From the IMG/VR virus record IMGVR_UViG_3300008255_000256, positions 1 through 36,896 of that record: a stretch of 36,896 nucleotides of DNA; one strand, given 5' to 3'. Below, piece by piece: positions 8,480 through 33,102 of this stretch (position 1 is the first letter of the stretch; every line of letters starts with the position of its first letter). A program made the translations under genes and the position numbers. Below the pieces are notes generated by a model. It did not search any database. It was not told the origin of the DNA and saw only the letters and a list, made by a program, of their open reading frames with translations. The DNA comes from a virus (lineage: Duplodnaviria; Caudoviricetes).

Positions 8480-8824
8480 ATGGCAAAAATAGCGTTTGAA
8501 GATAAGATATCATTAGTAACGAATGATTTACCGATTAATGGTAAGTTAACTGCTGATAATGCGAATGAGATTAAGAATTCGGTGAATGCGCTGTACGATA
8601 CAGCCGTTTGGACGGTTGAACTTGATAGCGGTTTAATACGTTCGTTTTCGTCGCCTGCGTCTATTAAGATAATGTCGATAGAAAGCAGTGTTGTTCAGAC
8701 GGTTTCGATTAAAGTTAATGCTGTTACGTACACGTTGGGCGATGATATTTCTCAGTGGGATGTAATCGAAATTACTGGAGAGTACGAATCGACTGTAAAT
8801 TTATTAATAGAATCTGCGTCATGA
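8480..8824 (+). CDS. hypothetical virion-associated protein
   Basis: 114-aa ORF in the tail operon. Confidence 0.55.
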   Translation: MAKIAFEDKISLVTNDLPINGKLTADNANEIKNSVNALYDTAVWTVELDSGLIRSFSSPASIKIMSIESSVVQTVSIKVNAVTYTLGDDISQWDVIEITGEYESTVNLLIESAS

Positions 8825-9471
8825 GTGTGAAAGACTTGTTTATACCTGCGGTTGGTGGTGGAGGCGGTGTTACTATTCCAGTTGGCGCTACATTAATGAA
8901 GACTGGAGCTATTTCGTCGGTTACTGGGGATGATGGAGATTTACAAAAGGGTAGAGAAGATGGTTTTTTAACGTTATCATCTGCGCCAGTTCATTTAGAC
9001 GGTTCGGCAACATTAAACACAACAACGTTCAGATTTACAGACACATTAGGTGGTCAAACGTATGCTGATAAAATATATTTGGATTGGAGTACATGGAATG
9101 GTGTTGATTTAAATGGATATTATTTTGACCCTGACACGTTAGGTTTTTATATATGGAGTGTATTTATAACTGCGTGTAATTCATTTTCTACGGTTGAATT
9201 CCCTACTGGTTGGTATCCTCCAAACGCTGGAGAAATGTTTTCATTGGCACACCAAGGAAAAAATCAAGCGTTAAATTACGCTCCTTTTAACTTGAACTCA
9301 GGTTATCAGTTTTGGACTTCTACGAGTTCATATAATGATCCCGACCCAATAACAGGTAGCGCAAAAATTATAGTGTCAGTTCGACAATCATTAGAGCAAT
9401 CTTCTAAAGCATCTAATTACTATTATATGCCATGTAGAAAATTCACGGTAACAGGAACAACTTTATCTTAA
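8821..9471 (+). CDS. DUF1566/Lcl-like (C-type lectin fold) protein
   Basis: GDDGDLQKG, W..FITACN, GWYPPNAGEMFSL, FWTSTS and terminal YMPCR; ATG 8821 overlaps the upstream TGA. Confidence 0.6.
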   Translation: MSVKDLFIPAVGGGGGVTIPVGATLMKTGAISSVTGDDGDLQKGREDGFLTLSSAPVHLDGSATLNTTTFRFTDTLGGQTYADKIYLDWSTWNGVDLNGYYFDPDTLGFYIWSVFITACNSFSTVEFPTGWYPPNAGEMFSLAHQGKNQALNYAPFNLNSGYQFWTSTSSYNDPDPITGSAKIIVSVRQSLEQSSKASNYYYMPCRKFTVTGTTLS

Positions 9472-9475
9472 AATT

Positions 9476-9709
9476 ATGAATTATAAATTCCCTCAATTTA
9501 ATGCTGAATTAATTGATCCTAAAATAGAGGATTTAAATGCGTCTTATAGTTTAAAATGCGAGAAAGTATTGATTACAGCAACATTAAATGCTAACGGAAA
9601 TAGAATTTACATGGTTAATCTTGGTGAAATGGAAAATTCAGACGAATGGAGTGATGCCGAGGTTTTGGATTTTGCAACCAAAGAACTAGAAAAATTTATA
9701 GTGAAATAA
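9476..9709 (+). CDS. hypothetical protein (possible fibre chaperone)
   Basis: 77-aa ORF tightly packed in the operon. Confidence 0.55.
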   Translation: MNYKFPQFNAELIDPKIEDLNASYSLKCEKVLITATLNANGNRIYMVNLGEMENSDEWSDAEVLDFATKELEKFIVK

Positions 9710-9717
9710 GATAAATC

Positions 9718-10824
9718 ATGAATGAAATTCCAACAACAGAGCATTTATATGCGTTAATAATGGCTGACTTCCAAAACAGGATGGGAACGTCATTACCGAA
9801 TTGGGGTAAATATTTCATTCGTGTTTTTGCAATGGTTAACGCTCATTTGTTTTATTTATTTTATGTTCGAATGTTTTTCGTTTATAAAAACATTCTGCCA
9901 GACACAGCTGATTCAGTTGCTAATGGTGGTTCACTCGAGCGTTACGGTTTATTATATTTGCAAAGATTACCATACAATGCAACTCAGAGTGTTTACGAAA
10001 TTCAAGGTGTTGGAATTACAGGTTCTACTATTCCGTCCGGGCGTACGTTTACAACGCAGAGAAATACAGTAAACTACATAAATGATTCAGCGTTTGTTTT
10101 TGCGCCCGGCGTGGATAGCTTTAATATACGGTCATTAACATCTGGAACGGCAACGAGATTACTTCCGGGTGATCAGGTTAATATTTCATCACCAGTTACT
10201 GGAGTTGAAAATACGTTTTTCGTTGTTTCTGAGGTTACAGAGCCAACAGATTCAGAGCCTTTGGAGTCGTACAGACAGAAAACAATTACAGCGATGCGTT
10301 ACCGTTCACGTGGAGGCGCTGCGACTGATTATAGATTCTGGAGCATTCAGGTTATTGGAGTGAGAAACGCGTATCCGTATACAGGTGTTCCGCTTCCAAA
10401 CGTTAATTTATTTATTGAGTCAGAAACAAACGATGGTGTTCCATCACTTGCATTATTATCAGATGTTGAGGCGTATGTTGAAACAAAACGAGAAATGGGT
10501 GTTTACATTAATTATTTGGCATGTACTCAGGTTGTAATTCAATTATACATACAAGGTGCGTTATCGCTTACGATTGCAGATAAACAGCAAATATTCACAG
10601 CATTAAAAGCATATTTATATAATAAACGTCCATTTATTCAGGCGATTGATGGGAGTTACAGAAATGACACGATTAATATTAATGAGATCATTGCAGTTAT
10701 TCAGTCTGTAAAACCGTCATTATTTCTAGGGAATATAGATATGACGGTTAATGGTTCGTCGCATGTAAATTATATGTTAGATTTAGGTAATATTCCGTTT
10801 TTGGATGAAATTTTCTACACATGA
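9718..10824 (+). CDS. baseplate J-like protein
   Basis: ILPDTAD..LERYG, TDSEPLESYRQK, GGAATDYRFW motifs. Confidence 0.88.
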   Translation: MNEIPTTEHLYALIMADFQNRMGTSLPNWGKYFIRVFAMVNAHLFYLFYVRMFFVYKNILPDTADSVANGGSLERYGLLYLQRLPYNATQSVYEIQGVGITGSTIPSGRTFTTQRNTVNYINDSAFVFAPGVDSFNIRSLTSGTATRLLPGDQVNISSPVTGVENTFFVVSEVTEPTDSEPLESYRQKTITAMRYRSRGGAATDYRFWSIQVIGVRNAYPYTGVPLPNVNLFIESETNDGVPSLALLSDVEAYVETKREMGVYINYLACTQVVIQLYIQGALSLTIADKQQIFTALKAYLYNKRPFIQAIDGSYRNDTININEIIAVIQSVKPSLFLGNIDMTVNGSSHVNYMLDLGNIPFLDEIFYT

Positions 10825-11573
10825 TTTCAAAGGTTATTCGAAAATTATTACCTACTGGTAGGGCGTATAAATTCAGAGCTGTTGGTAATTCGTTTATTGA
10901 TGGTAACGCTGATGAGTTTGATCGTGTTTTACTGGATATTGACCAGTTTTTAAACGGTATTATTCCAGACAATGAGGCGTTTGATGGTGGGTGGTTGGAA
11001 CGCTTTGAACGGTTTTTTGATATTCCTATAAATGAATTAGATTCTCAAGCGGTTAGAATGGCGCGCGTACGCGCTAGAATGACACCAGTTGATCCGAACG
11101 AATCTTTAATATCTATGAGTGCGTTACAAGCTGAAATTGATAACGCAGGATGGGGAGGAGTTTTATATTTGCATGAAAATCCATCAGGGTTTTTACCTCA
11201 AAATATTTTACCACCGTTATCTGTTGGTGTACAGTTGGATGATTATCAATTGGGAGATGAACAGCTCGGAGTGTTACCGCCAGAGAATGATTATCCAGAG
11301 TTATTCTCGTGGTATCAGTTAGATGATTCTCAGTTGGGTGATGCTCAGTTAATAGATGGCCCGATTTTTAACAATAAAATTGCGAATAGTTTAAACAGAC
11401 ATCGAGATACATTTGTAAATTTACAGCCGTTACCTCACACGTTTTATGTTTGTGGTGTTAATTTTGGAGAAATTGTCACGTTGCCATCATCGGATGAAAT
11501 TCCGTTAAGACAGTTATTATTGAACATTAAACCAGCGTCTAGCGTTGGGTTTTTATTAATTAAATACGTATAA
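10821..11573 (+). CDS. baseplate wedge protein (Mu gp48/YmfQ-like)
   Basis: Follows baseplate J; LLPTGRAY start, LERFERFFDIP, terminal IKPA. Confidence 0.7.
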   Translation: MISKVIRKLLPTGRAYKFRAVGNSFIDGNADEFDRVLLDIDQFLNGIIPDNEAFDGGWLERFERFFDIPINELDSQAVRMARVRARMTPVDPNESLISMSALQAEIDNAGWGGVLYLHENPSGFLPQNILPPLSVGVQLDDYQLGDEQLGVLPPENDYPELFSWYQLDDSQLGDAQLIDGPIFNNKIANSLNRHRDTFVNLQPLPHTFYVCGVNFGEIVTLPSSDEIPLRQLLLNIKPASSVGFLLIKYV

Positions 11574-11576
11574 ATT

Positions 11577-12122
11577 ATGATTAAGTTAGAAGATAAATCG
11601 AATGTGAATGCACCGTCAGTGTCGTTTCCGTATGGGTCGTTAAGAAATAATCCAGGAGACAACACAGGAACACCCGTAAATGTTAATTTAGTTGGTGACG
11701 TGATGCAGTTGATGGAAAAGATCATGGCAGAATCTGGAATTACACCTAACGGACTGCCAGATAACGAGGCGAACGGATGGCAGTTGTATGAGGCGTTGCT
11801 GCTTCTGACAGGTGGTGGAATTAGAAGGGAAATTATTAACATTGGAGATTGGGATATGGATGCTGATGGAATTGTAACAGTTGCTCATGGTCTTGCTGAT
11901 TATTCAAAGATTAAGAGAGTTTCAGTAATGATAATTCCAGATGCTGGGTCGATTATTTTACCGCTAGACTGTTTTGATGGAGTGTCAATGTCTGGGGGTA
12001 TTAATCAAATTGATGGTACAAATATAGTACTCTCCAGACTTGCTTCTGGACTATTTGACAGTACATCATTTGACAGTACATCATTTAACAGGGGTTATAT
12101 TTTAATCGATTATTTACCGTAA
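11577..12122 (+). CDS. short tail fibre / putative receptor-binding protein
   Basis: Follows the gp48-like gene; N-terminal GTPV...SGITPN...QLYEAL resembles Mu-type fibre anchors; beta-rich C-terminal domain. Confidence 0.65.
   Translation: MIKLEDKSNVNAPSVSFPYGSLRNNPGDNTGTPVNVNLVGDVMQLMEKIMAESGITPNGLPDNEANGWQLYEALLLLTGGGIRREIINIGDWDMDADGIVTVAHGLADYSKIKRVSVMIIPDAGSIILPLDCFDGVSMSGGINQIDGTNIVLSRLASGLFDSTSFDSTSFNRGYILIDYLP
12053..12091 (+). repeat. 15-bp tandem repeat (about 2.6 copies)
   Basis: ATTTGACAGTACATC twice plus ATTTAACAG; encodes FDSTS-FDSTS-FN. Confidence 0.85.
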
Positions 12123-12178
12123 CATTTATTAATTAGATATTTATTTGTAACTTAGCAGAAATAAATAAATCGAAAATT

Positions 12179-12541
12179 ATGAAAAAGTTAATCATTTTAT
12201 CAGTGGTTGCATTGTCGTTTATGGCGATTTCATGCAAAAAAGAAAATCCAGAACCGCAAGAAATTACGACTGGTCAAGTTGAAACGTTAAGTATTGGATC
12301 ATGGAACATGGATGCAATGCAAGCCGTTGAGGTGAATTTGGAAAATCCAGACGGAATTATTTCAGTTGATGTAATTATTTACTCTGACAATGGAAACGAA
12401 ACTCCATTGATTCAAGACGGTTCTTACATTAAAGAAAATGGAAGTATATTCTTGTTAAGAAAAGAAAACGGATATTTCGACCAAAGTGCGTTTTCAAATT
12501 CCACAATCAACCGTGGAATTATAACGATTCATTATCAATAA
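12179..12541 (+). CDS. lipoprotein, paralog of the tail-fibre C-terminal domain
   Basis: Signal peptide II MKKLIILSVVALSFMAIS-C, then KKE; IGSWNMDA and NRGIITIHY correspond to motifs in the upstream protein. Confidence 0.85.
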   Translation: MKKLIILSVVALSFMAISCKKENPEPQEITTGQVETLSIGSWNMDAMQAVEVNLENPDGIISVDVIIYSDNGNETPLIQDGSYIKENGSIFLLRKENGYFDQSAFSNSTINRGIITIHYQ

Positions 12542-12561
12542 ATCACATTTTACGTAAAATT

Positions 12562-12590
12562 AAGACCAGCATTGTATGTTGGTCTTTTTT
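12562..12590 (+). terminator. intrinsic terminator
   Basis: AAGACCAGCA-TTGTA-TGTTGGTCTT followed by a T-run. Confidence 0.75.
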
Positions 12591-12604
12591 AGTATTTTTA
12601 CCCT

Positions 12605-13330
12605 ATGATTAAGTTAGACAATTCTACATTTAAACGTTATTACACTGAGGTTAAATTGCTCGGTGAAAAGGACTTTGTTGATGTAGCTCGTGAGGCACTT
12701 AATGAAACGGCTAAATTCGCAAAGAAAACAACAATTCAGAAATCAGCTAACGACGCTTTTACTGTTCGTAATAAATCATTTTTCAAGGCGTTCACGCGTG
12801 TTGAATATGCAAAACGTGGACAATCATCAACGCTTGGTGGACTTCATTCATCGGTTGGGATGTTTAATAATAGTTCCAAAAAATCACTATCATCTACGTA
12901 TAATCCATTGGATAACATGGAAGAAATGGAGCATGGCGGTTCTATTAAACGTGAAATAACACCCCTTAATCAGTCTAGGATTTCAAAAACATATAATCGA
13001 GCCGTTTCAAAAACATCGTTGTTCTCAGGTAATTTAATTACTCAGTCTAAAATGAATGGTAAGCATGCAAAGCAACGTTTTAGAATTGCGCTTGAGACTG
13101 CGAAGAAAGAAGGTAAGAAATTTATACTTGCGGATGAATACAAAGCGATTTATGCAGTTTCATCTAGAAAAACACGCAGGATATTTGGTTACGATAAATC
13201 GAACACGAATAGAATTAAGGCTACTCATTTCATGGAGAAAGCAACCCGCGAAGCATCGGAGTTAATTCCAGCGTTTTTTATAAAAGAAGCGATTAAGAAG
13301 ATTGAATTTAGAGCATCAAAAATTAAGTAA
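12605..13330 (+). CDS. putative tail completion/neck protein (gpZ-like)
   Basis: Basic protein with ALNETA, MEHGG and C-terminal THFMEKA. Confidence 0.5.
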   Translation: MIKLDNSTFKRYYTEVKLLGEKDFVDVAREALNETAKFAKKTTIQKSANDAFTVRNKSFFKAFTRVEYAKRGQSSTLGGLHSSVGMFNNSSKKSLSSTYNPLDNMEEMEHGGSIKREITPLNQSRISKTYNRAVSKTSLFSGNLITQSKMNGKHAKQRFRIALETAKKEGKKFILADEYKAIYAVSSRKTRRIFGYDKSNTNRIKATHFMEKATREASELIPAFFIKEAIKKIEFRASKIK

Positions 13331-19421: not shown

Positions 19422-20600
19422 ATGAAAAAATTAGGATTAAGTTTAGGATTGACGGCTGTAGTGTCGTTGTTGTTTGCTCCAATTGGTATTGCACTTGGAA
19501 TGTTTGTTTTGATGCTTACGGCTGGATTAATTTTCTCAGGAACTGCAGGTGTGGCAATGTCAACTTTACCGTTAACTCAGTTTGATGCTTTGCATGCTTC
19601 TGTATTGAAACGTAGTGATGCTAGAGAAAATGTTACTTACTTTTTAAGTTCGTTTTTCAAGTCTGAGACTGTTGACAACATTAATGTAGCGTTTAATACG
19701 AAGTCGAATAATAAGAAAGTTGCGATTGACATCAACTATCAGACGAATGGAGTATTACATAAACGTAGAGTTGAATCATCTGAAATGGTACAGATTCCAC
19801 AATACATGAAGTTTACGAATTTAACGTTATCTGACTTATATACAGGTGTTGCGTTAGCTCCGTTAGAACGAAATATATTTGAATTTGGACGTGTTATTTC
19901 GAATGACTTACATGATATTGCAGACGAAATCGACAGAGCGAGAGAATTACAAGCTGCTCAAGTTTTTGCGAATGGAATTGTATTATTGCAGAATAATGAC
20001 AATATCAATTACGGACGTTCTGGTTCATCTATTGTAACATCTGGAGCATATTGGACAGCGACAACAGGTGATCCAATAGCAGATTTAACGACGGGTGTTT
20101 CTTGGATTAGAAGTAATACCAACAATACGTCTGGCGTATGGAATGTTGTCCTTGGTGAATCAGCTGTTGCTGGATTCTTAGCGAATGATAAAGTTCTAGC
20201 AGCGTTAAACAATAGACGTGTTGAAATTGGTAAGATTGCACCAATGCAAGCGGAGGCCTCAGGAGGTAATTACATCGGTGAGTTTATCACTAATTCAGGT
20301 CAAACAATTCGAGTTTGGGGATATGATGGAAAATATACGAATGCTGCTGGTACGGATGTTGCGTTAGTTGATAAAAACAACGCAATTATAATTCCATCAC
20401 AAAACAACCTTACAATGGTTAAAGGAACGATTAAAACGATTCCTGGAACTATGAATGTTGGTTCGTTTAGAGGTAAAACTCAGTGGGAGGTTATGGATTA
20501 CAAAGCTCAAGCGCATGAGTATCACTTAGCTGAGAACTTCATTGCAATTCCACAGGAGTTGAATGAGATTTATACACTTAAAGCGACTAACGTAGCTTAA
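19422..20600 (+). CDS. major capsid protein (lambda gpE-like) with hydrophobic N-terminal leader
   Basis: FLSSFF, IDRARELQAAQV..NG, W....GDPIADL, YDGKY; follows the decoration gene. Confidence 0.82.
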   Translation: MKKLGLSLGLTAVVSLLFAPIGIALGMFVLMLTAGLIFSGTAGVAMSTLPLTQFDALHASVLKRSDARENVTYFLSSFFKSETVDNINVAFNTKSNNKKVAIDINYQTNGVLHKRRVESSEMVQIPQYMKFTNLTLSDLYTGVALAPLERNIFEFGRVISNDLHDIADEIDRARELQAAQVFANGIVLLQNNDNINYGRSGSSIVTSGAYWTATTGDPIADLTTGVSWIRSNTNNTSGVWNVVLGESAVAGFLANDKVLAALNNRRVEIGKIAPMQAEASGGNYIGEFITNSGQTIRVWGYDGKYTNAAGTDVALVDKNNAIIIPSQNNLTMVKGTIKTIPGTMNVGSFRGKTQWEVMDYKAQAHEYHLAENFIAIPQELNEIYTLKATNVA

Positions 20601-21942: not shown

Positions 21943-21969
21943 TTATTAATTTTGAAATTAAAATATAGA

Positions 21970-22233
21970 ATGACAACAATAGAAACAATCAAAGCAATAA
22001 AAGACTATGGATTACTTGCAGTAGCAGTTATAGTTTTTGTATGGATGAATGGACAGCTTTCTGAACAGAAGCAAGATATTAAAGAAATTCAGGGTATATT
22101 ATATGATTGTTTTGAAGATAGGATAAAGGAGAATATAAGACCTATATCATTTAATGAGACAACACCGGTATCGATATTTAGAGTTAAGTCGGTTTGTGTA
22201 TTGCCTGAAGAAATTAAAATAAAAAATTCATGA
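21970..22233 (+). CDS. small membrane protein in the lysis cluster
   Basis: One TM segment plus short coiled coil; ATG 21970 preferred over TTG 21952. Confidence 0.55.
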   Translation: MTTIETIKAIKDYGLLAVAVIVFVWMNGQLSEQKQDIKEIQGILYDCFEDRIKENIRPISFNETTPVSIFRVKSVCVLPEEIKIKNS

Positions 22234-22478
22234 ACGTTCAGAAGTTAATTGACGATACTTTAAAAGGTCCAGATAATAAATGGAGTAGAAAGTCGTTAAC
22301 GGCTTTTATTTCAATGGCTATCGCTGTTATCACTGGAGCGTATATTGTTGTTTCAGATTACTTTTTAGACCGTGAAATAAATCAGTATGCGATTATGGTT
22401 TTTTATGGCTTCCTTGGTTTGGGTGGTGGAACTCTAGGATTAACGGTAATTGATAAAATAAAAAATAAATCAGAATGA
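22230..22478 (+). CDS. putative holin
   Basis: 82 aa, two TM segments, overlaps the endolysin start. Confidence 0.65.
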   Translation: MNVQKLIDDTLKGPDNKWSRKSLTAFISMAIAVITGAYIVVSDYFLDREINQYAIMVFYGFLGLGGGTLGLTVIDKIKNKSE

Positions 22479-22921
22479 AACTATCAGAACACGTAAGTTT
22501 GTCAGAATTTGAACATTCGGAAACGGCAACAAGAAAGGGGTATGATCAAAGCATGAACGCTGAACAATTAGAGAGCGCAAAAGAACTTTGTGAAAAGATA
22601 TTTGAACCATTAAGAAAATTTCGTGGTTCTGCAATTTTCATCAGTTCAGGTTTTCGTGGTTTACAATTAAATAAAGCCATTGGAGGTGCTTCAAGTTCTC
22701 AGCATTGTAAAGGACAAGCAATTGACATAAAAATAAACGCTGAAGAGTTTCATTTCATAAAGGATAATTTAAACTTTGATCAGTTAATATGGGAGTTCGG
22801 AAACGACGATCAACCACAATGGGTTCATGTTTCTTATGATCGTTTTAAAACTAAACAAAGAAACCAAGTATTGAAAGCGATTAAAATTGGAGGTAAAACT
22901 AAATACATTCCGTTCAAATGA
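22475..22921 (+). CDS. endolysin, peptidase M15 family
   Basis: SSGFR...N..IGGASSSQH.KGQAID and WVHVS zinc-peptidase motifs. Confidence 0.9.
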   Translation: MKLSEHVSLSEFEHSETATRKGYDQSMNAEQLESAKELCEKIFEPLRKFRGSAIFISSGFRGLQLNKAIGGASSSQHCKGQAIDIKINAEEFHFIKDNLNFDQLIWEFGNDDQPQWVHVSYDRFKTKQRNQVLKAIKIGGKTKYIPFK

Positions 22922-23148
22922 AACTACTATTTAAAAACTGGGGATTCTGGTCTATAATTGGAAACGTTATTTTCATTTCCACCATTATAATAATGGCGGT
23001 TATTTGGAACGGTCACGAATGTCCAAAGCAGGAACTCCCAGAGATAACAGAAAAACACATACAACAAATTAAACGAATAGGAAATGCAGAAACTAAACAA
23101 GATATTGATAGTTTGCTTATTGAGCTTTACAACTTTGGCTCAAAATGA
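22918..23148 (+). CDS. membrane protein (spanin-like position)
   Basis: N-terminal TM segment; follows the endolysin. Confidence 0.5.
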   Translation: MKLLFKNWGFWSIIGNVIFISTIIIMAVIWNGHECPKQELPEITEKHIQQIKRIGNAETKQDIDSLLIELYNFGSK

Positions 23149-23392
23149 CAGTACTTTTTGCTTTACAAAATCTCAAGTAAAGGTATTTCTAACTACTAAG
23201 GTAGAATTAAACAACTGTAACGAACAGTACAATTTGATTTCAACGCAAAAACAAGCGATTTCAGACAGTTTAACCGCTGAAATGTTAAATACTACCAAAC
23301 TAGATAAAAAAGTCAAAAGAAACCGACGTATTGCAATTGGTGGTATTAGTGGATTTATCGCTGTTATTGTGTTGATGTTCGCAATTAAATAG
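23084..23392 (+). CDS. secreted/membrane coiled-coil protein (spanin-like position)
   Basis: Signal-peptide-like start, coiled coil and C-terminal TM; overlaps the previous ORF by 65 nt. Confidence 0.5.
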   Translation: MQKLNKILIVCLLSFTTLAQNDSTFCFTKSQVKVFLTTKVELNNCNEQYNLISTQKQAISDSLTAEMLNTTKLDKKVKRNRRIAIGGISGFIAVIVLMFAIK

Positions 23393-30412: not shown

Positions 30413-30652
30413 ATGAAAAACTGTAAAATTAAACGGGTGATAGTTCCGTATGCAAATATGCACGAATTTACGGATGTTGAATTTATTAAACTATTTGGTA
30501 AAATTCCTGATTTTAGAAAATTTATAACATGCGCTAACATTTCAGATGGATTAAAATATGAGAATTCAAATCCAGAAATAAAATATTTAGAAGGTCGTGT
30601 TAAATTCGTCAAATTCACACCTGAGCAATTCTTAAAACATTACCTGAAATGA
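30413..30652 (+). CDS. hypothetical protein
   Basis: 79 aa; ATGA overlap with the helicase. Confidence 0.55.
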   Translation: MKNCKIKRVIVPYANMHEFTDVEFIKLFGKIPDFRKFITCANISDGLKYENSNPEIKYLEGRVKFVKFTPEQFLKHYLK

Positions 30653-33102
30653 TAACACCGAGAGATTATCAATCTGTATTTATCAACAATACACGCAACG
30701 AATTAATTAATAATCGTTCGGTTCTTGGTGTTCTACCAACTGGTGGCGGTAAAACTGTTTGTTTCACCTACATCACTCAACTCGCTATGCAACGAAATTC
30801 AATCGTATGGATTATAGCACACCGCAAGGAATTAATTAATCAGGCATCTAAAACATTAAACTCATTTGGAGTAAAACACGGTATCATTTCACCAAAATTT
30901 ACACCTAATTACCACTCAAACGTTCAAGTCGCATCAGTTCAAACGTTAGCGAATAGATATCATAAATATGAAAATCCAAATATTATCATAATCGACGAGT
31001 GTTTTACAGGTGAAACGTTAGTAGATGGTGTAAGAATTGATTCTTTAGTTGTTGGAGAAGAAATATCATCGTTTAATCATGACTATTCTAAAATTGAAAA
31101 AAAGAGAATAGAGAAAATATACAATAGAGAATATACTGGAGATTGGTATAGAGTCAAGATGATGGACGGTACCGAAATAGTATGCACAGAAAACCACCCT
31201 TTCTATGTTGCTTCAAAAGGGTATATTTCTATAAAAGAAATAAAAAAAACAAGTGATAACTGCAACATGATGCCTATATTTGTTTCTAATGAAATAAACA
31301 ATGAAAGATATTTGTCAAAATTGCCAAAAATTCACCGAAAGGAGCAAACCCAAAAGACTGAAAAAGTTTTGCGATACAAAATGCAAGGCAGAATTTTACA
31401 ATCTAAGTCTGAGTCCACTTCCAGAATTGAGATGTTTAATTTGCGAAAAGAAATCGAACTATTACAAGACGAGAAAATCGCATTTAGAAGCATCAAGGAA
31501 AGGTCGATCATTTTGCTCAAAGGAATGTGTAAAGACATATCAAAAACAGTTGAGTTCAGAGACAATGTCCAAGACAAACCGAAAATATGCCTCAGAAAGG
31601 ATGAAAGTAAAAAACCCTATGTTCAACGAGAAATCATTAGAAAAAATGAAGAATTCAATGCAGGGAAAAACTTTCCTGTCTCGAGGCGGAAATGGTCAAA
31701 ATACAAGGCAACAAATATTATTAGCGAACGCTTTAAATCTACCAACGGAACATGCTATAACCTTAAAGTCTGTAAAACACTTGTTTCAAAGCGTCCCGAA
31801 CTGCTACAAGGTAGATATCGCCTATCCACAGATCAAGTTAGCAATAGAAGTGGATGGAAAGACTCACAGGCTGAAGAAATGGAAGTTCTTAGACAGAAGG
31901 AAAACGGAAATTTTATCGGAATTAGGGTGGACTGTATTGAGGTTTACAAACGAGGAAGTGGACAACGACCTGAATGGGTGCCTGGAAATAACACAGTCTA
32001 TAATATCCACGTTGAAGACAATCTAAATTATTTTGCAAATGGAATTTTAGTTCACAATTGTCATCACAGTACAGCTGGGCAATGGCGTAAAATAATCGAC
32101 CAATATCCAGATGCCAAAGTAATCGGAGTTACGGCAACACCTGAACGTTCTGACGGAATTGGACTCGGTGATATTTACGATTCATTGGTTATTGGACCAC
32201 AAATTTATGAATTAATCGAATTAGGGTATTTAGTACCTCCAATTGTGTATCGACCTCCAATGGTTGCTGAATTAAACGATGTTAAACGTCATAAATCCGA
32301 TTATGTTCGCGAGGATCTTGCAAGGGTAATGAATAAGCCAACAATTACAGGTGACGCGATTGAACATTACAAAAAACACGCTTATGGATTACCTACAATT
32401 GTATTCACAGCAAACGTTCAACACGCAAAAGATGTTGCTAAACAATTTAGAGATTATGGCTTTGCGTTCTATGCAATTGACGGCTCGATTGATGATAAAG
32501 AACGTGACCGATTAATTAACGGTTTGGGTGGTCCAGATGTAACAGGATTAGTTTCATGTGATTTGATTTCTGAGGGAACGGATATTCCTGCTGTTGGATG
32601 TTTGATTTTATTACGTCCAACTCAATCATTAGGTTTGTTTTTACAGCAAATAGGACGTGGACTAAGAACGATTGAAGGTAAATCGAATTGTATAATTTTG
32701 GACCATGTAGGAAATACATTGCGTCATGGAATGCCAACACAACATCGTGAATGGTCGCTTGAAGGGCGTAAAAAAAGAGGTTCGAAAGCAGTACAAGAAG
32801 ATGATATAAACATCACGACATGCACTGAATGTTATTTCACGTCAACGAAGTTCAGTATTTGCCCGTCCTGTGGATTTGAGGTTAAAATAATACCTCAATC
32901 TGAAATCGAAACTGTTGATGGTGAATTACAGTTAGCTGAAGAAATAGAACGAAAGGAAAAGGCAGAATTAAAACAAGCAGTTTACAACGCACGTGATCGT
33001 GAATCGTTGGAGGCGATAGCGAAGCAAAAAGGGTATAAACGCGGTTGGGTTGAACACATGTTGAAATCTAGAGCCGAAAAAGAATTAAATCGAGTATTAT
33101 GA
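30649..33102 (+). CDS. SF2 DExH helicase with intein (464 aa after splicing)
   Basis: PRDYQ, LPTGGGKT, IIDE^CHH, GVTATPER, SEGTDIP, QQIGRGLR and C-terminal CxxC..CxxC. Confidence 0.93.
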   Translation: MITPRDYQSVFINNTRNELINNRSVLGVLPTGGGKTVCFTYITQLAMQRNSIVWIIAHRKELINQASKTLNSFGVKHGIISPKFTPNYHSNVQVASVQTLANRYHKYENPNIIIIDECFTGETLVDGVRIDSLVVGEEISSFNHDYSKIEKKRIEKIYNREYTGDWYRVKMMDGTEIVCTENHPFYVASKGYISIKEIKKTSDNCNMMPIFVSNEINNERYLSKLPKIHRKEQTQKTEKVLRYKMQGRILQSKSESTSRIEMFNLRKEIELLQDEKIAFRSIKERSIILLKGMCKDISKTVEFRDNVQDKPKICLRKDESKKPYVQREIIRKNEEFNAGKNFPVSRRKWSKYKATNIISERFKSTNGTCYNLKVCKTLVSKRPELLQGRYRLSTDQVSNRSGWKDSQAEEMEVLRQKENGNFIGIRVDCIEVYKRGSGQRPEWVPGNNTVYNIHVEDNLNYFANGILVHNCHHSTAGQWRKIIDQYPDAKVIGVTATPERSDGIGLGDIYDSLVIGPQIYELIELGYLVPPIVYRPPMVAELNDVKRHKSDYVREDLARVMNKPTITGDAIEHYKKHAYGLPTIVFTANVQHAKDVAKQFRDYGFAFYAIDGSIDDKERDRLINGLGGPDVTGLVSCDLISEGTDIPAVGCLILLRPTQSLGLFLQQIGRGLRTIEGKSNCIILDHVGNTLRHGMPTQHREWSLEGRKKRGSKAVQEDDINITTCTECYFTSTKFSICPSCGFEVKIIPQSEIETVDGELQLAEEIERKEKAELKQAVYNARDRESLEAIAKQKGYKRGWVEHMLKSRAEKELNRVL
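31275..31282 (+). promoter_or_regulatory. candidate internal -7 promoter for the nested endonuclease
   Basis: TATATTTG ends 18 nt before ATG 31301; no clear -33 element. Confidence 0.55.
31301..32026 (+). CDS. Vsr/DUF559-like putative homing endonuclease nested in the +1 frame of the intein
   Basis: Two CxxC...FCxxxC repeats, NUMOD-like linker, YKVDIAYPQIKLAIEVDGKTH...DRRKTEILSELGWTVLRFTNEEV. Confidence 0.88.
   Translation: MKDICQNCQKFTERSKPKRLKKFCDTKCKAEFYNLSLSPLPELRCLICEKKSNYYKTRKSHLEASRKGRSFCSKECVKTYQKQLSSETMSKTNRKYASERMKVKNPMFNEKSLEKMKNSMQGKTFLSRGGNGQNTRQQILLANALNLPTEHAITLKSVKHLFQSVPNCYKVDIAYPQIKLAIEVDGKTHRLKKWKFLDRRKTEILSELGWTVLRFTNEEVDNDLNGCLEITQSIISTLKTI

Follow-up and report, generated by a model that had tools for sequence, protein, structure and literature searches.

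Passages of two papers present exclusion lipoproteins encoded beside receptor-binding genes as an established arrangement. They describe Llp of phage T5 and Cor of T1 and phi80 as small lipoproteins of such loci whose proposed role is to put the receptor out of action and thereby prevent superinfection and adsorption to debris, with Llp acting from the periplasm by allosterically jamming FhuA (PMC9586334, PMC11990801). The window analyzed here is the whole stretch of 36,896 nucleotides (36.9 kb) of IMG/VR record IMGVR_UViG_3300008255_000256, a 75% complete virus of the Caudoviricetes, and carries a gene for a small predicted lipoprotein directly behind a gene for a short tail-fibre-like protein. 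The role proposed for Llp and Cor is also proposed for this lipoprotein. Unlike Llp and Cor, which to our knowledge are unrelated to their own receptor-binding proteins, the window lipoprotein derives from the fibre tip and is a predicted trimeric beta-sandwich. Exported copies of fibre tips were found to be real and recurrent in related phages.

The likeness to Llp and Cor consists of a lipobox cysteine and of a gene that lies beside, and co-varies with, a putative receptor-binding gene. No homology of the window lipoprotein to Llp or Cor was detected with Pfam, PHROG (at E 0.01) or NCBIfam, and matches to the Cor PHROG in relatives were weak (E 0.01-0.09) and mostly over the leader. The truncated retroviral Env Refrex-1 combines a signal peptide with the receptor-binding part of its own attachment protein, is secreted and competes for the entry receptor, and proteins of this type share repeated independent origins with the exported tips (PMC9245640). 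Refrex-1 is an animal host-domesticated gene with no sequence or structural relation to the window gene, whereas the latter is phage encoded, its product is lipid anchored or periplasmic, and competition is only proposed. The ORF35/36 slot of the Ficleduovirus phages FCV-1 and FCOV has the same gene order and anchor domain as the window locus, and passages of two papers report that changes in it accompany host-range change (PMC7345892, PMC9304149). FCV-1 differs in that its anchor-family proteins are two in number and longer, and in that the minor tail gene follows theirs without an intervening gene. We found no phage precedent for an exported fibre-tip copy in the literature, our coverage of which is incomplete.

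Homology of the lipoprotein with the adjacent fibre tip

The fibre-like open reading frame (ORF) codes for 181 residues (11577-12122), as first described in an earlier note made from the sequence, and the lipoprotein ORF codes for 120 residues with a lipobox cysteine at position 19 (12179-12541). The elements of the locus are listed below (AF2, AlphaFold 2; pLDDT, predicted local distance difference test; GC3, GC content at third codon positions; dN and dS, nonsynonymous and synonymous divergence).

11577..11825, + strand: anchor domain and helix (residues 1-83) of the 181-residue short tail-fibre-like protein; phrog_5194/5221, tblastn matches to FL-1 and FCV-1 (E 2e-10 to 4e-10), BFVD
11826..12122, + strand: tip domain A (residues 84-181), a swappable C-terminal beta-sandwich predicted to bind the receptor; AF2 pLDDT 92, tip swaps, GC3
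12148..12155, + strand: promoter-like element of the Bacteroidota -7 type, TAACTTAG, with one mismatch to TANNTTTG, ending 23 nucleotides before the ATG
12179..12541, + strand: predicted lipoprotein consisting of export leader, linker and tip-A domain (residues ~33-120); AF2 pLDDT 88, predicted homotrimer, dN/dS ~0.3 against the L185 homologue
12179..12235, + strand: signal peptide of the lipoprotein type with Cys19 of the lipobox; KKENPEPQE comes next and partly fits the Bacteroidota export signal
12562..12592, + strand: intrinsic terminator-like hairpin (12562-12586) and T run closing the lipoprotein gene

BLASTP aligned fibre residues 85-179 with lipoprotein residues 35-119 (33/95 identities, 35%; E 5e-9), and the three segment pairs quoted in the earlier note are all present in this alignment. 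The pairwise match was significant, since the Smith-Waterman score of 95 exceeded the maximum of 64 reached in 5000 shuffles (mean, 29.7) and comparison of a profile of 27 lipoproteins with one of 91 fibre-type proteins returned a probability of 99.9 (E 3e-33, 94 columns). Similarity between the two genes at the DNA level was not significant (best blastn E 0.15).

AF2 models built from the separate alignments of 27 lipoproteins and 91 fibre-type proteins (pLDDT of 88 for the lipoprotein and 92 for the fibre tip) are both beta-sandwiches of identical strand order. Searches with either model returned identical leading structural neighbours, phage tail and baseplate domains among them, aligned in matching parts of the chains (all Z<7); the two predicted folds are the same. 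The best VIA-align Z scores (6.9 and 6.6) are within the range of common arrangements, Foldseek gave no match in the PDB at E<=0.001, and sequence searches of the PDB returned leader-only matches or none. Three copies of the lipoprotein domain were predicted to form a homotrimer, with a score of 0.94 versus 0.01 for the best of 3 controls, agreement between runs in at least 92% of the contacts and pLDDT values of at least 93; the mark used for this prediction was reached by 20/30 solved pairs and 1/23 single chains, counts that hold only roughly for a three-copy job. Conservation extends across fibres and lipoproteins at W42, M44, D70, R94, F100, N111, R112 and G113, none of which is part of the predicted trimer interface; on the basis of the strand order, these residues would cluster at the end distal to the anchor.

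In size, predicted trimeric state and C-terminal position in a fibre, tip A is similar to Gp53-like_C (PF21882), the H-type lectin domain (PF09458), the R1 pyocin tip and the C-terminus of phage K gp144. Such trimeric fibre-tip beta-sandwiches are weak structural matches to tip A (Z 4.4-5.3, root mean square deviation of ~3-3.6 A over 75-88 residues). Tip A has no Pfam match, Z is <8 and Atlas scores for named families are <0.9, as are all Atlas features of the lipoprotein, so that the resemblance to these families (Atlas feature score, 0.86; Z 4.4-5.1; discoidin Z 4.7-5.1) is a lead only.

The upstream gene follows baseplate wedge genes and combines a conserved anchor with a swappable tip, as expected of a tail fibre. 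Its anchor domain is common to gp34 of FCV-1 and matched Flavobacterium phages (Ficleduovirus FCV-1, FL-1) and Cellulophaga phages (tblastn, 98 records); these matches, including that of FCV-1, cover the anchor only and none of tip A. Since the anchor matches phages of these genera and the gene order of FCV-1 (J, wedge, anchor-family genes, minor tail) is the same as that of the window, the host is probably a member of the Bacteroidota, and by gene order and anchor sequence the window phage is Ficleduovirus-like. Tip A is the C-terminus of many unrelated anchors and proteins in phage contigs, and other tips sit behind the window's anchor, as in P0012 (85% identity over the anchor half, different C-terminus). 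GC3 is 0.46 in the anchor versus 0.22 in tip A, and the whole fibre model matched tail fibre proteins in BFVD (E 6e-5 to 3e-4). When FCV-1 is compared with FCV-1.01, a host-range variant of it, gp35, the product of the second gene in the anchor slot, has 17 differences, all within residues 155-375, gp36 has 3, and J, wedge and gp34 have 0. Parts of two papers tie the Ficleduovirus tail-slot ORFs to host range or host recognition (PMC7345892, PMC9304149). Based on the swapped tips, the BFVD matches and the FCV-1 host-range variation, we may reasonably infer a receptor-binding role for tip A. The swap behind a constant anchor, the wedge-adjacent slot and the tail-fibre matches likewise sustain the prediction, made in the earlier note, that the upstream domain is a fibre tip. 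Tip A is unnamed, as neither the fibre nor the lipoprotein version of it matched Pfam, PHROGs or NCBIfam.

A lipoprotein signal takes the place of the fibre anchor, as previously proposed. Cys19 is preceded by a basic N-terminus and a hydrophobic core (a pattern-based assignment), and the lipobox cysteine is aligned and invariant in 27/27 homologues, which were chosen for having a lipobox. Lipidation and export of the window protein are therefore predicted. The surface-lipoprotein export signal of Bacteroidota, given in the relevant passage as C-x-K-(D/E)2 or Q-A-(D/E)2, varies among members of the phylum (PMC5080379). In the window, CKKENPEPQE has K at +2/+3 and a single acidic residue at +4 and does not match the strict K-(D/E)2 form.

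The Bacteroidota -7 consensus is TANNTTTG, according to a passage of one paper (PMC6847099). The promoter-like element of the earlier note, TAACTTAG, is present at 12148-12155; taken alone, this match is not significant (p 0.61), and the case for it rests on the summed match over 7 fibre-to-copy intergenic regions (p 0.003), those of L261 and L279 containing a perfect TANNTTTG, with a hairpin upstream of the element in L279. The lipoprotein gene thus probably has its own promoter. It also has its own terminator, as proposed: the hairpin at 12562-12586 (-15.7 kcal/mol, z -5.4) was matched in stability by 0/200 shuffles and is followed by a T run. No terminator was detected between the fibre and lipoprotein genes. 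Near-identical contigs were found in runs labelled aquifer metagenome. A 915-nt contig of another run spans 11785-12699 with 0 differences, and because this independent contig bridges the two genes identically, their adjacency is not an assembly artefact. Contigs in two further runs (X2 and X3) match only 12159-12198 of the window, in another context (40 nt; 2 differences and 2 gaps). This segment covers the 5' region and the first lipoprotein codons and is AT rich and short, so that the match is possibly due to chance or to a shared leader.

Exported tip copies in related phages

Among 1.84 billion representatives, 577 were matched in a profile search, and 24 of the best 150 were short lipobox-plus-tip proteins. 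Together with three lipoproteins from a separate search, they form the 27-member alignment, with 25-63% identity to the window protein. Comparison of the window lipoprotein with its L185 homologue gave a dN of 0.29 and a dS of 0.95 (a crude estimate), indicating purifying selection. Genomic context was available for three distinct lipoproteins (window, L166/L205 and L185), each encoded immediately after a tip-A protein. P0003 and P0006, which share a 42,690-nt longest contig, were treated as a probable pair, and L079 contains a signal-peptide tip-A copy behind its own fibre.

Co-variation was assessed in 83 unique anchor loci, of which 67 were scorable; eighty loci were fetched by the anchor alone, blind to copies. 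A second tip family, B (1657 database matches), was found behind the same anchor family and displayed no profile homology to tip A beyond the signal peptide. Exported tip-B copies lie behind five B fibres, as lipoproteins (L260, L279, L284) or signal-peptide proteins (L253, L261). The slot behind A fibres (n = 13) held 2 A-copies and 5 other inserts and was empty in 6 loci, that behind B fibres (n = 12) held 5 B-copies and was empty in 7, and that behind other fibres (n = 42) held 1 B-copy (L289) and 7 other inserts and was empty in 34. A-copies were therefore present behind 2/13 A fibres versus 0/54 elsewhere (Fisher p 0.035, not blind), and B-copies behind 5/12 B fibres versus 1/55 elsewhere (Fisher p 4.5e-4, blind). 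The copy matched the tip family of the adjacent fibre in 7/8 anchor-family cases and hence tracked it across two unrelated tip families, as the earlier note had asked of related phages. The slot was empty in 47/67 scorable relatives; this, the terminator and the pooled promoter signal agree with the moron-like accessory status suggested for the gene.

Other searches added few copies. A DNA pattern targeted at the lipoprotein gave mostly noise, with the tip-A domain in 2/53 viral and 8/64 metagenome loci, among which 1 viral and 3 metagenome loci had a lipoprotein copy (one being the window's own contig and one repeating L166). The pattern detected a lipoprotein copy in 0/30 prokaryote-genome loci, but host-genome copies are still conceivable because it fits only part of the lipoprotein family. 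The only tblastn match of the lipoprotein among 50,697 phage records, to a Gordonia record, was weak (E 0.02) and was rejected. A generic scan of 120 tip-A loci (80 with full flanks) found tandem copies only in L079 and L047, and exported copies in a scan of 120 tip-B loci were re-finds of L253, L260 and L261. Tandem tip-bearing proteins without export signals comprised two short tip-A proteins in L047 (877-1779), three tip-B fibres in L288 (2887-4631) and two tip-B pairs (L336 and L387).

The age of the copies varies. Ranked against the window lipoprotein, the window's own fibre was 163rd among 279 tip-A domains, and the own-fibre ranks were 135 for L185 and 125 for the 42,690-nt contig pair; the 279-row set included a few probable lipoproteins and fragments, whose removal left 275 rows. 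This rank, the trees and the lack of significant DNA similarity reject a recent copy of the phage's own tip. The earlier description of the lipoprotein as such a copy accordingly holds for homology to the tip domain but not for closeness or freshness. The own fibre was the best match among 279 (A) or 127 (B) tips in 4/10 pairs (L166, L079, L261 and L279). L079, L261 and L279 are fresh copies with ~50% identity, whereas L166 may owe its first rank to a short loop in common, its copy and fibre not being paired in the tree.

Trees were built on subsets (55/311 A domains and 41/133 B domains, ~100 columns), with many forks unresolved, and a FastTree of the full 311 rows needed 16 label changes. 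The L261 and L279 copies were sister to their own fibres with Shimodaira-Hasegawa-like approximate likelihood ratio test (SH-aLRT) supports of 98 and 96, and monophyly of the exported B copies was rejected by the approximately unbiased test (p-AU 0.023). The window lipoprotein grouped with P0002, P0003, P0004 and P0086 (support 90); their partner tips, of which three are known, clustered together (support 88). The best match of the window tip among 274 other tips was the L185 tip, although the anchors differ, and the best match of the window lipoprotein was the L185 lipoprotein; P0006 and P0003 ranked 3rd and 2nd in the tip and lipoprotein best-match lists, respectively. Since the two groupings agree and L185 provides the best match for both, the window carries, as judged from these trees, an old duplicate co-travelling with its tip as a cassette, and its relatives display fresh duplications. 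Tip B of L279 and tip A of P0096 are preceded by one and the same export leader (23/28 identical), a pattern suggestive of domain replacement behind the leader. The duplicate appears to have arisen by local duplication and export-leader capture, repeatedly in this phage group.

Proposed receptor occupancy and competing explanations

The optional gene, in which an export signal of the lipoprotein type is fused to a domain homologous to the tip of the adjacent fibre, would specify a predicted trimer anchored in the host envelope. The fibre tip presumably binds a host receptor; the anchored trimer would likely occupy that molecule, and the infected cell, or debris from it, would then adsorb fewer phages of the same or a related kind. 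Competition for the tip's ligand is the simplest explanation because the copy is exported, optional, probably separately promoted and predicted to be trimeric and because it tracks the tip family. We favour receptor occupancy by the exported tip, leading to superinfection exclusion or progeny protection, as an almost evenly poised proposal. It is plausible, with the balance tilting somewhat against it, that receptor interference arose repeatedly in this way as an invention of Bacteroidota phages, their own tip being duplicated, fused to a leader, used to fill the envelope and remade after a tip swap. If true, exclusion by a factor built from the binding domain of the phage itself would constitute a new mechanism, one whose specificity is matched automatically. 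Such superinfection exclusion would form a self-updating class that corresponds, in bacteria, to truncated retroviral Env, and the true receptor binder among the virion domains would be the one labelled by an exported copy.

Several observations weigh against receptor occupancy. The window lipoprotein resembles its own tip no more closely than it does any typical tip A, and since its own fibre ranks only 163/279 it may have lost binding to the same ligand; own fibres are mid-table in 6/10 pairs, the window included. Monophyly of the exported A copies was not rejected (p-AU 0.19), and co-inheritance in the window lineage needs no explanation beyond physical linkage. Both A-copy loci of the cross-table were found by searching for the lipoprotein itself, so that only the B test was blind, and the p-values are optimistic and independence overstated because the loci are phylogenetically related. 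Genomic context covers few of the 27 lipoproteins, roughly 23 tip-A lipoproteins being without it. The single mismatch, in L289 (4072-4452), is a tip-B copy behind a fibre that is neither A nor B; it has an N-terminal membrane-like segment and is possibly a leftover after a fibre swap. The slot also holds 7 unrelated exported proteins (7 loci), three of them HExxH lipoproteins, and may for this reason simply collect envelope genes. The strict K-(D/E)2 signal is present in 7/27 homologues, the window protein not among them, and K at +2/+3 in 22/27. In L079, L253 and L261 the copy begins with a plain signal peptide; such proteins would stay in the periplasm or be released rather than be anchored at the surface. 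Finally, masking may be futile should an abundant glycan be the ligand, an analogy taken from a passage on O-antigen modification (PMC11990801).

The exported tip might instead act as an envelope lectin or adhesin, keeping its glycan binding and serving the infected or lysogenic host in adhesion, aggregation, vesicle loading or nutrient capture. This is unlikely, though it has the most to recommend it among the alternatives: the tip resembles H-lectin and Gp53-like domains at the level of a lead, the window lipoprotein has diverged from its own fibre yet is under apparent purifying selection, and the slot accommodates the other exported proteins mentioned above. Such a conversion does not predict the 7/8 match with the tip family or the recurrence of fresh ~50%-identical copies, except as by-products of local duplication. 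No integrase that would support long-term residence was found among the 48 window proteins (Pfam scan; 75% complete record); none was found either in four relatives, whose fragmentary state makes that result uninformative.

It is improbable that the copies result from opportunistic capture, in which a mobile, promoter-bearing leader in the slot is fused by local recombination to the nearest domain, the tip, with products that are tolerated or have minor roles. The occurrence of one leader on both tips, the 7 unrelated exported genes, the 47/67 empty loci and the L289 mismatch would fit this explanation, but intact ORFs, core residues conserved across 27 lipoproteins at 25-63% identity, the crude dN of 0.29 versus dS of 0.95 and retention of the predicted trimer interface would not.

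We assign a similarly low likelihood to a decoy directed at host surveillance or at competing particles, that is, to an exported tip that titrates a host envelope factor sensing or inactivating fibre tips or that is shed at lysis, in vesicles or in soluble form, to coat debris and neighbouring cells. Matching of the own tip family fits a decoy equally well, the soluble versions, which have a signal peptide (L079, L253, L261), are compatible with a release during lysis, and late co-expression is possible since no terminator was detected between the fibre and lipoprotein genes. No host sensor of fibre tips was identified in the present analysis, however, and the shedding variant overlaps receptor occupancy, from which sequence cannot separate it.

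In P2 and Mu, fibre-assembly proteins are encoded directly behind the fibre gene, and an exported lipoprotein is spatially separated from fibre assembly, which is cytoplasmic. A virion or assembly role for the lipoprotein (chaperone, capping subunit or spanin-like lysis lipoprotein), the alternative offered by the earlier note, shares this gene position, and homologous domains could co-assemble, but it is highly improbable because the slot is empty in 47/67 relatives (behind 6/13 tip-A and 7/12 tip-B fibres) and the protein carries an export signal, and also in view of the endolysin and predicted membrane neighbours being located elsewhere (21952-23392) and of no Tfa or spanin family match in Pfam, PHROGs or NCBIfam.

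In the copies, two abundant unnamed fibre-tip families (577 and 1657 database matches) occur naturally as small, free-standing proteins, and this makes the copies ready-made probes for the receptors of Bacteroidota phages. Receptors are unknown even for F. columnare phages, according to a passage of one paper (PMC7345892).

Other slot genes and genomic surroundings

Eight slot genes (in L036, L046, L053, L248, L257, L283, L320 and L003) were considered as fibre-tip copies and rejected, their scores being below the shuffle maxima. Three of them, in L036 (1680-2237), L046 (2778-3203) and L053 (2757-3236), encode related lipoproteins behind tip-A fibres that have a metalloprotease-like HELGH motif, one being on the opposite strand; they are possibly another family of envelope-modifying exclusion proteins. 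L257, L283, L305, L320, L248 and L003 carry genes for unrelated lipoproteins or secreted proteins immediately after the fibre gene; several of these genes run on the opposite strand.

The window contains modules for a contractile tail (sheath, tube, tape measure, baseplate J), a lambda-type portal and capsid, and RecT, helicase and primase. The genes flanking the locus are the following.

9718..10824, + strand: baseplate J-like wedge protein; Pfam Baseplate_J E 1e-18, phrog_6
10821..11573, + strand: baseplate wedge subunit; phrog_4920 E 2e-21, phrog_203 (baseplate wedge) E 2e-6
12605..13330, + strand: minor tail protein; phrog_4688 E 1e-25

The minor tail gene is directly 3' of the fibre gene in relatives without an insert. 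Three genes at 8480-9709 (+ strand) are inserted between a baseplate wedge gene and baseplate J, at a place where FCV-1 has none, and the middle one (8821-9471) has weak matches to Lcl_C (E 7e-5, below the cut-off) and to the Lsa25 adhesin; the three genes are a candidate second attachment or decoration module. The major capsid protein ORF (19422-20600, + strand) starts with a hydrophobic stretch of ~45 residues, similar to a signal or membrane segment, ahead of the capsid domain. The helicase gene (30649-33102, + strand) bears an intein (Pfam Intein_splicing E 1e-11), and an ORF of 241 residues (31301-32026, another + frame) is nested within it.
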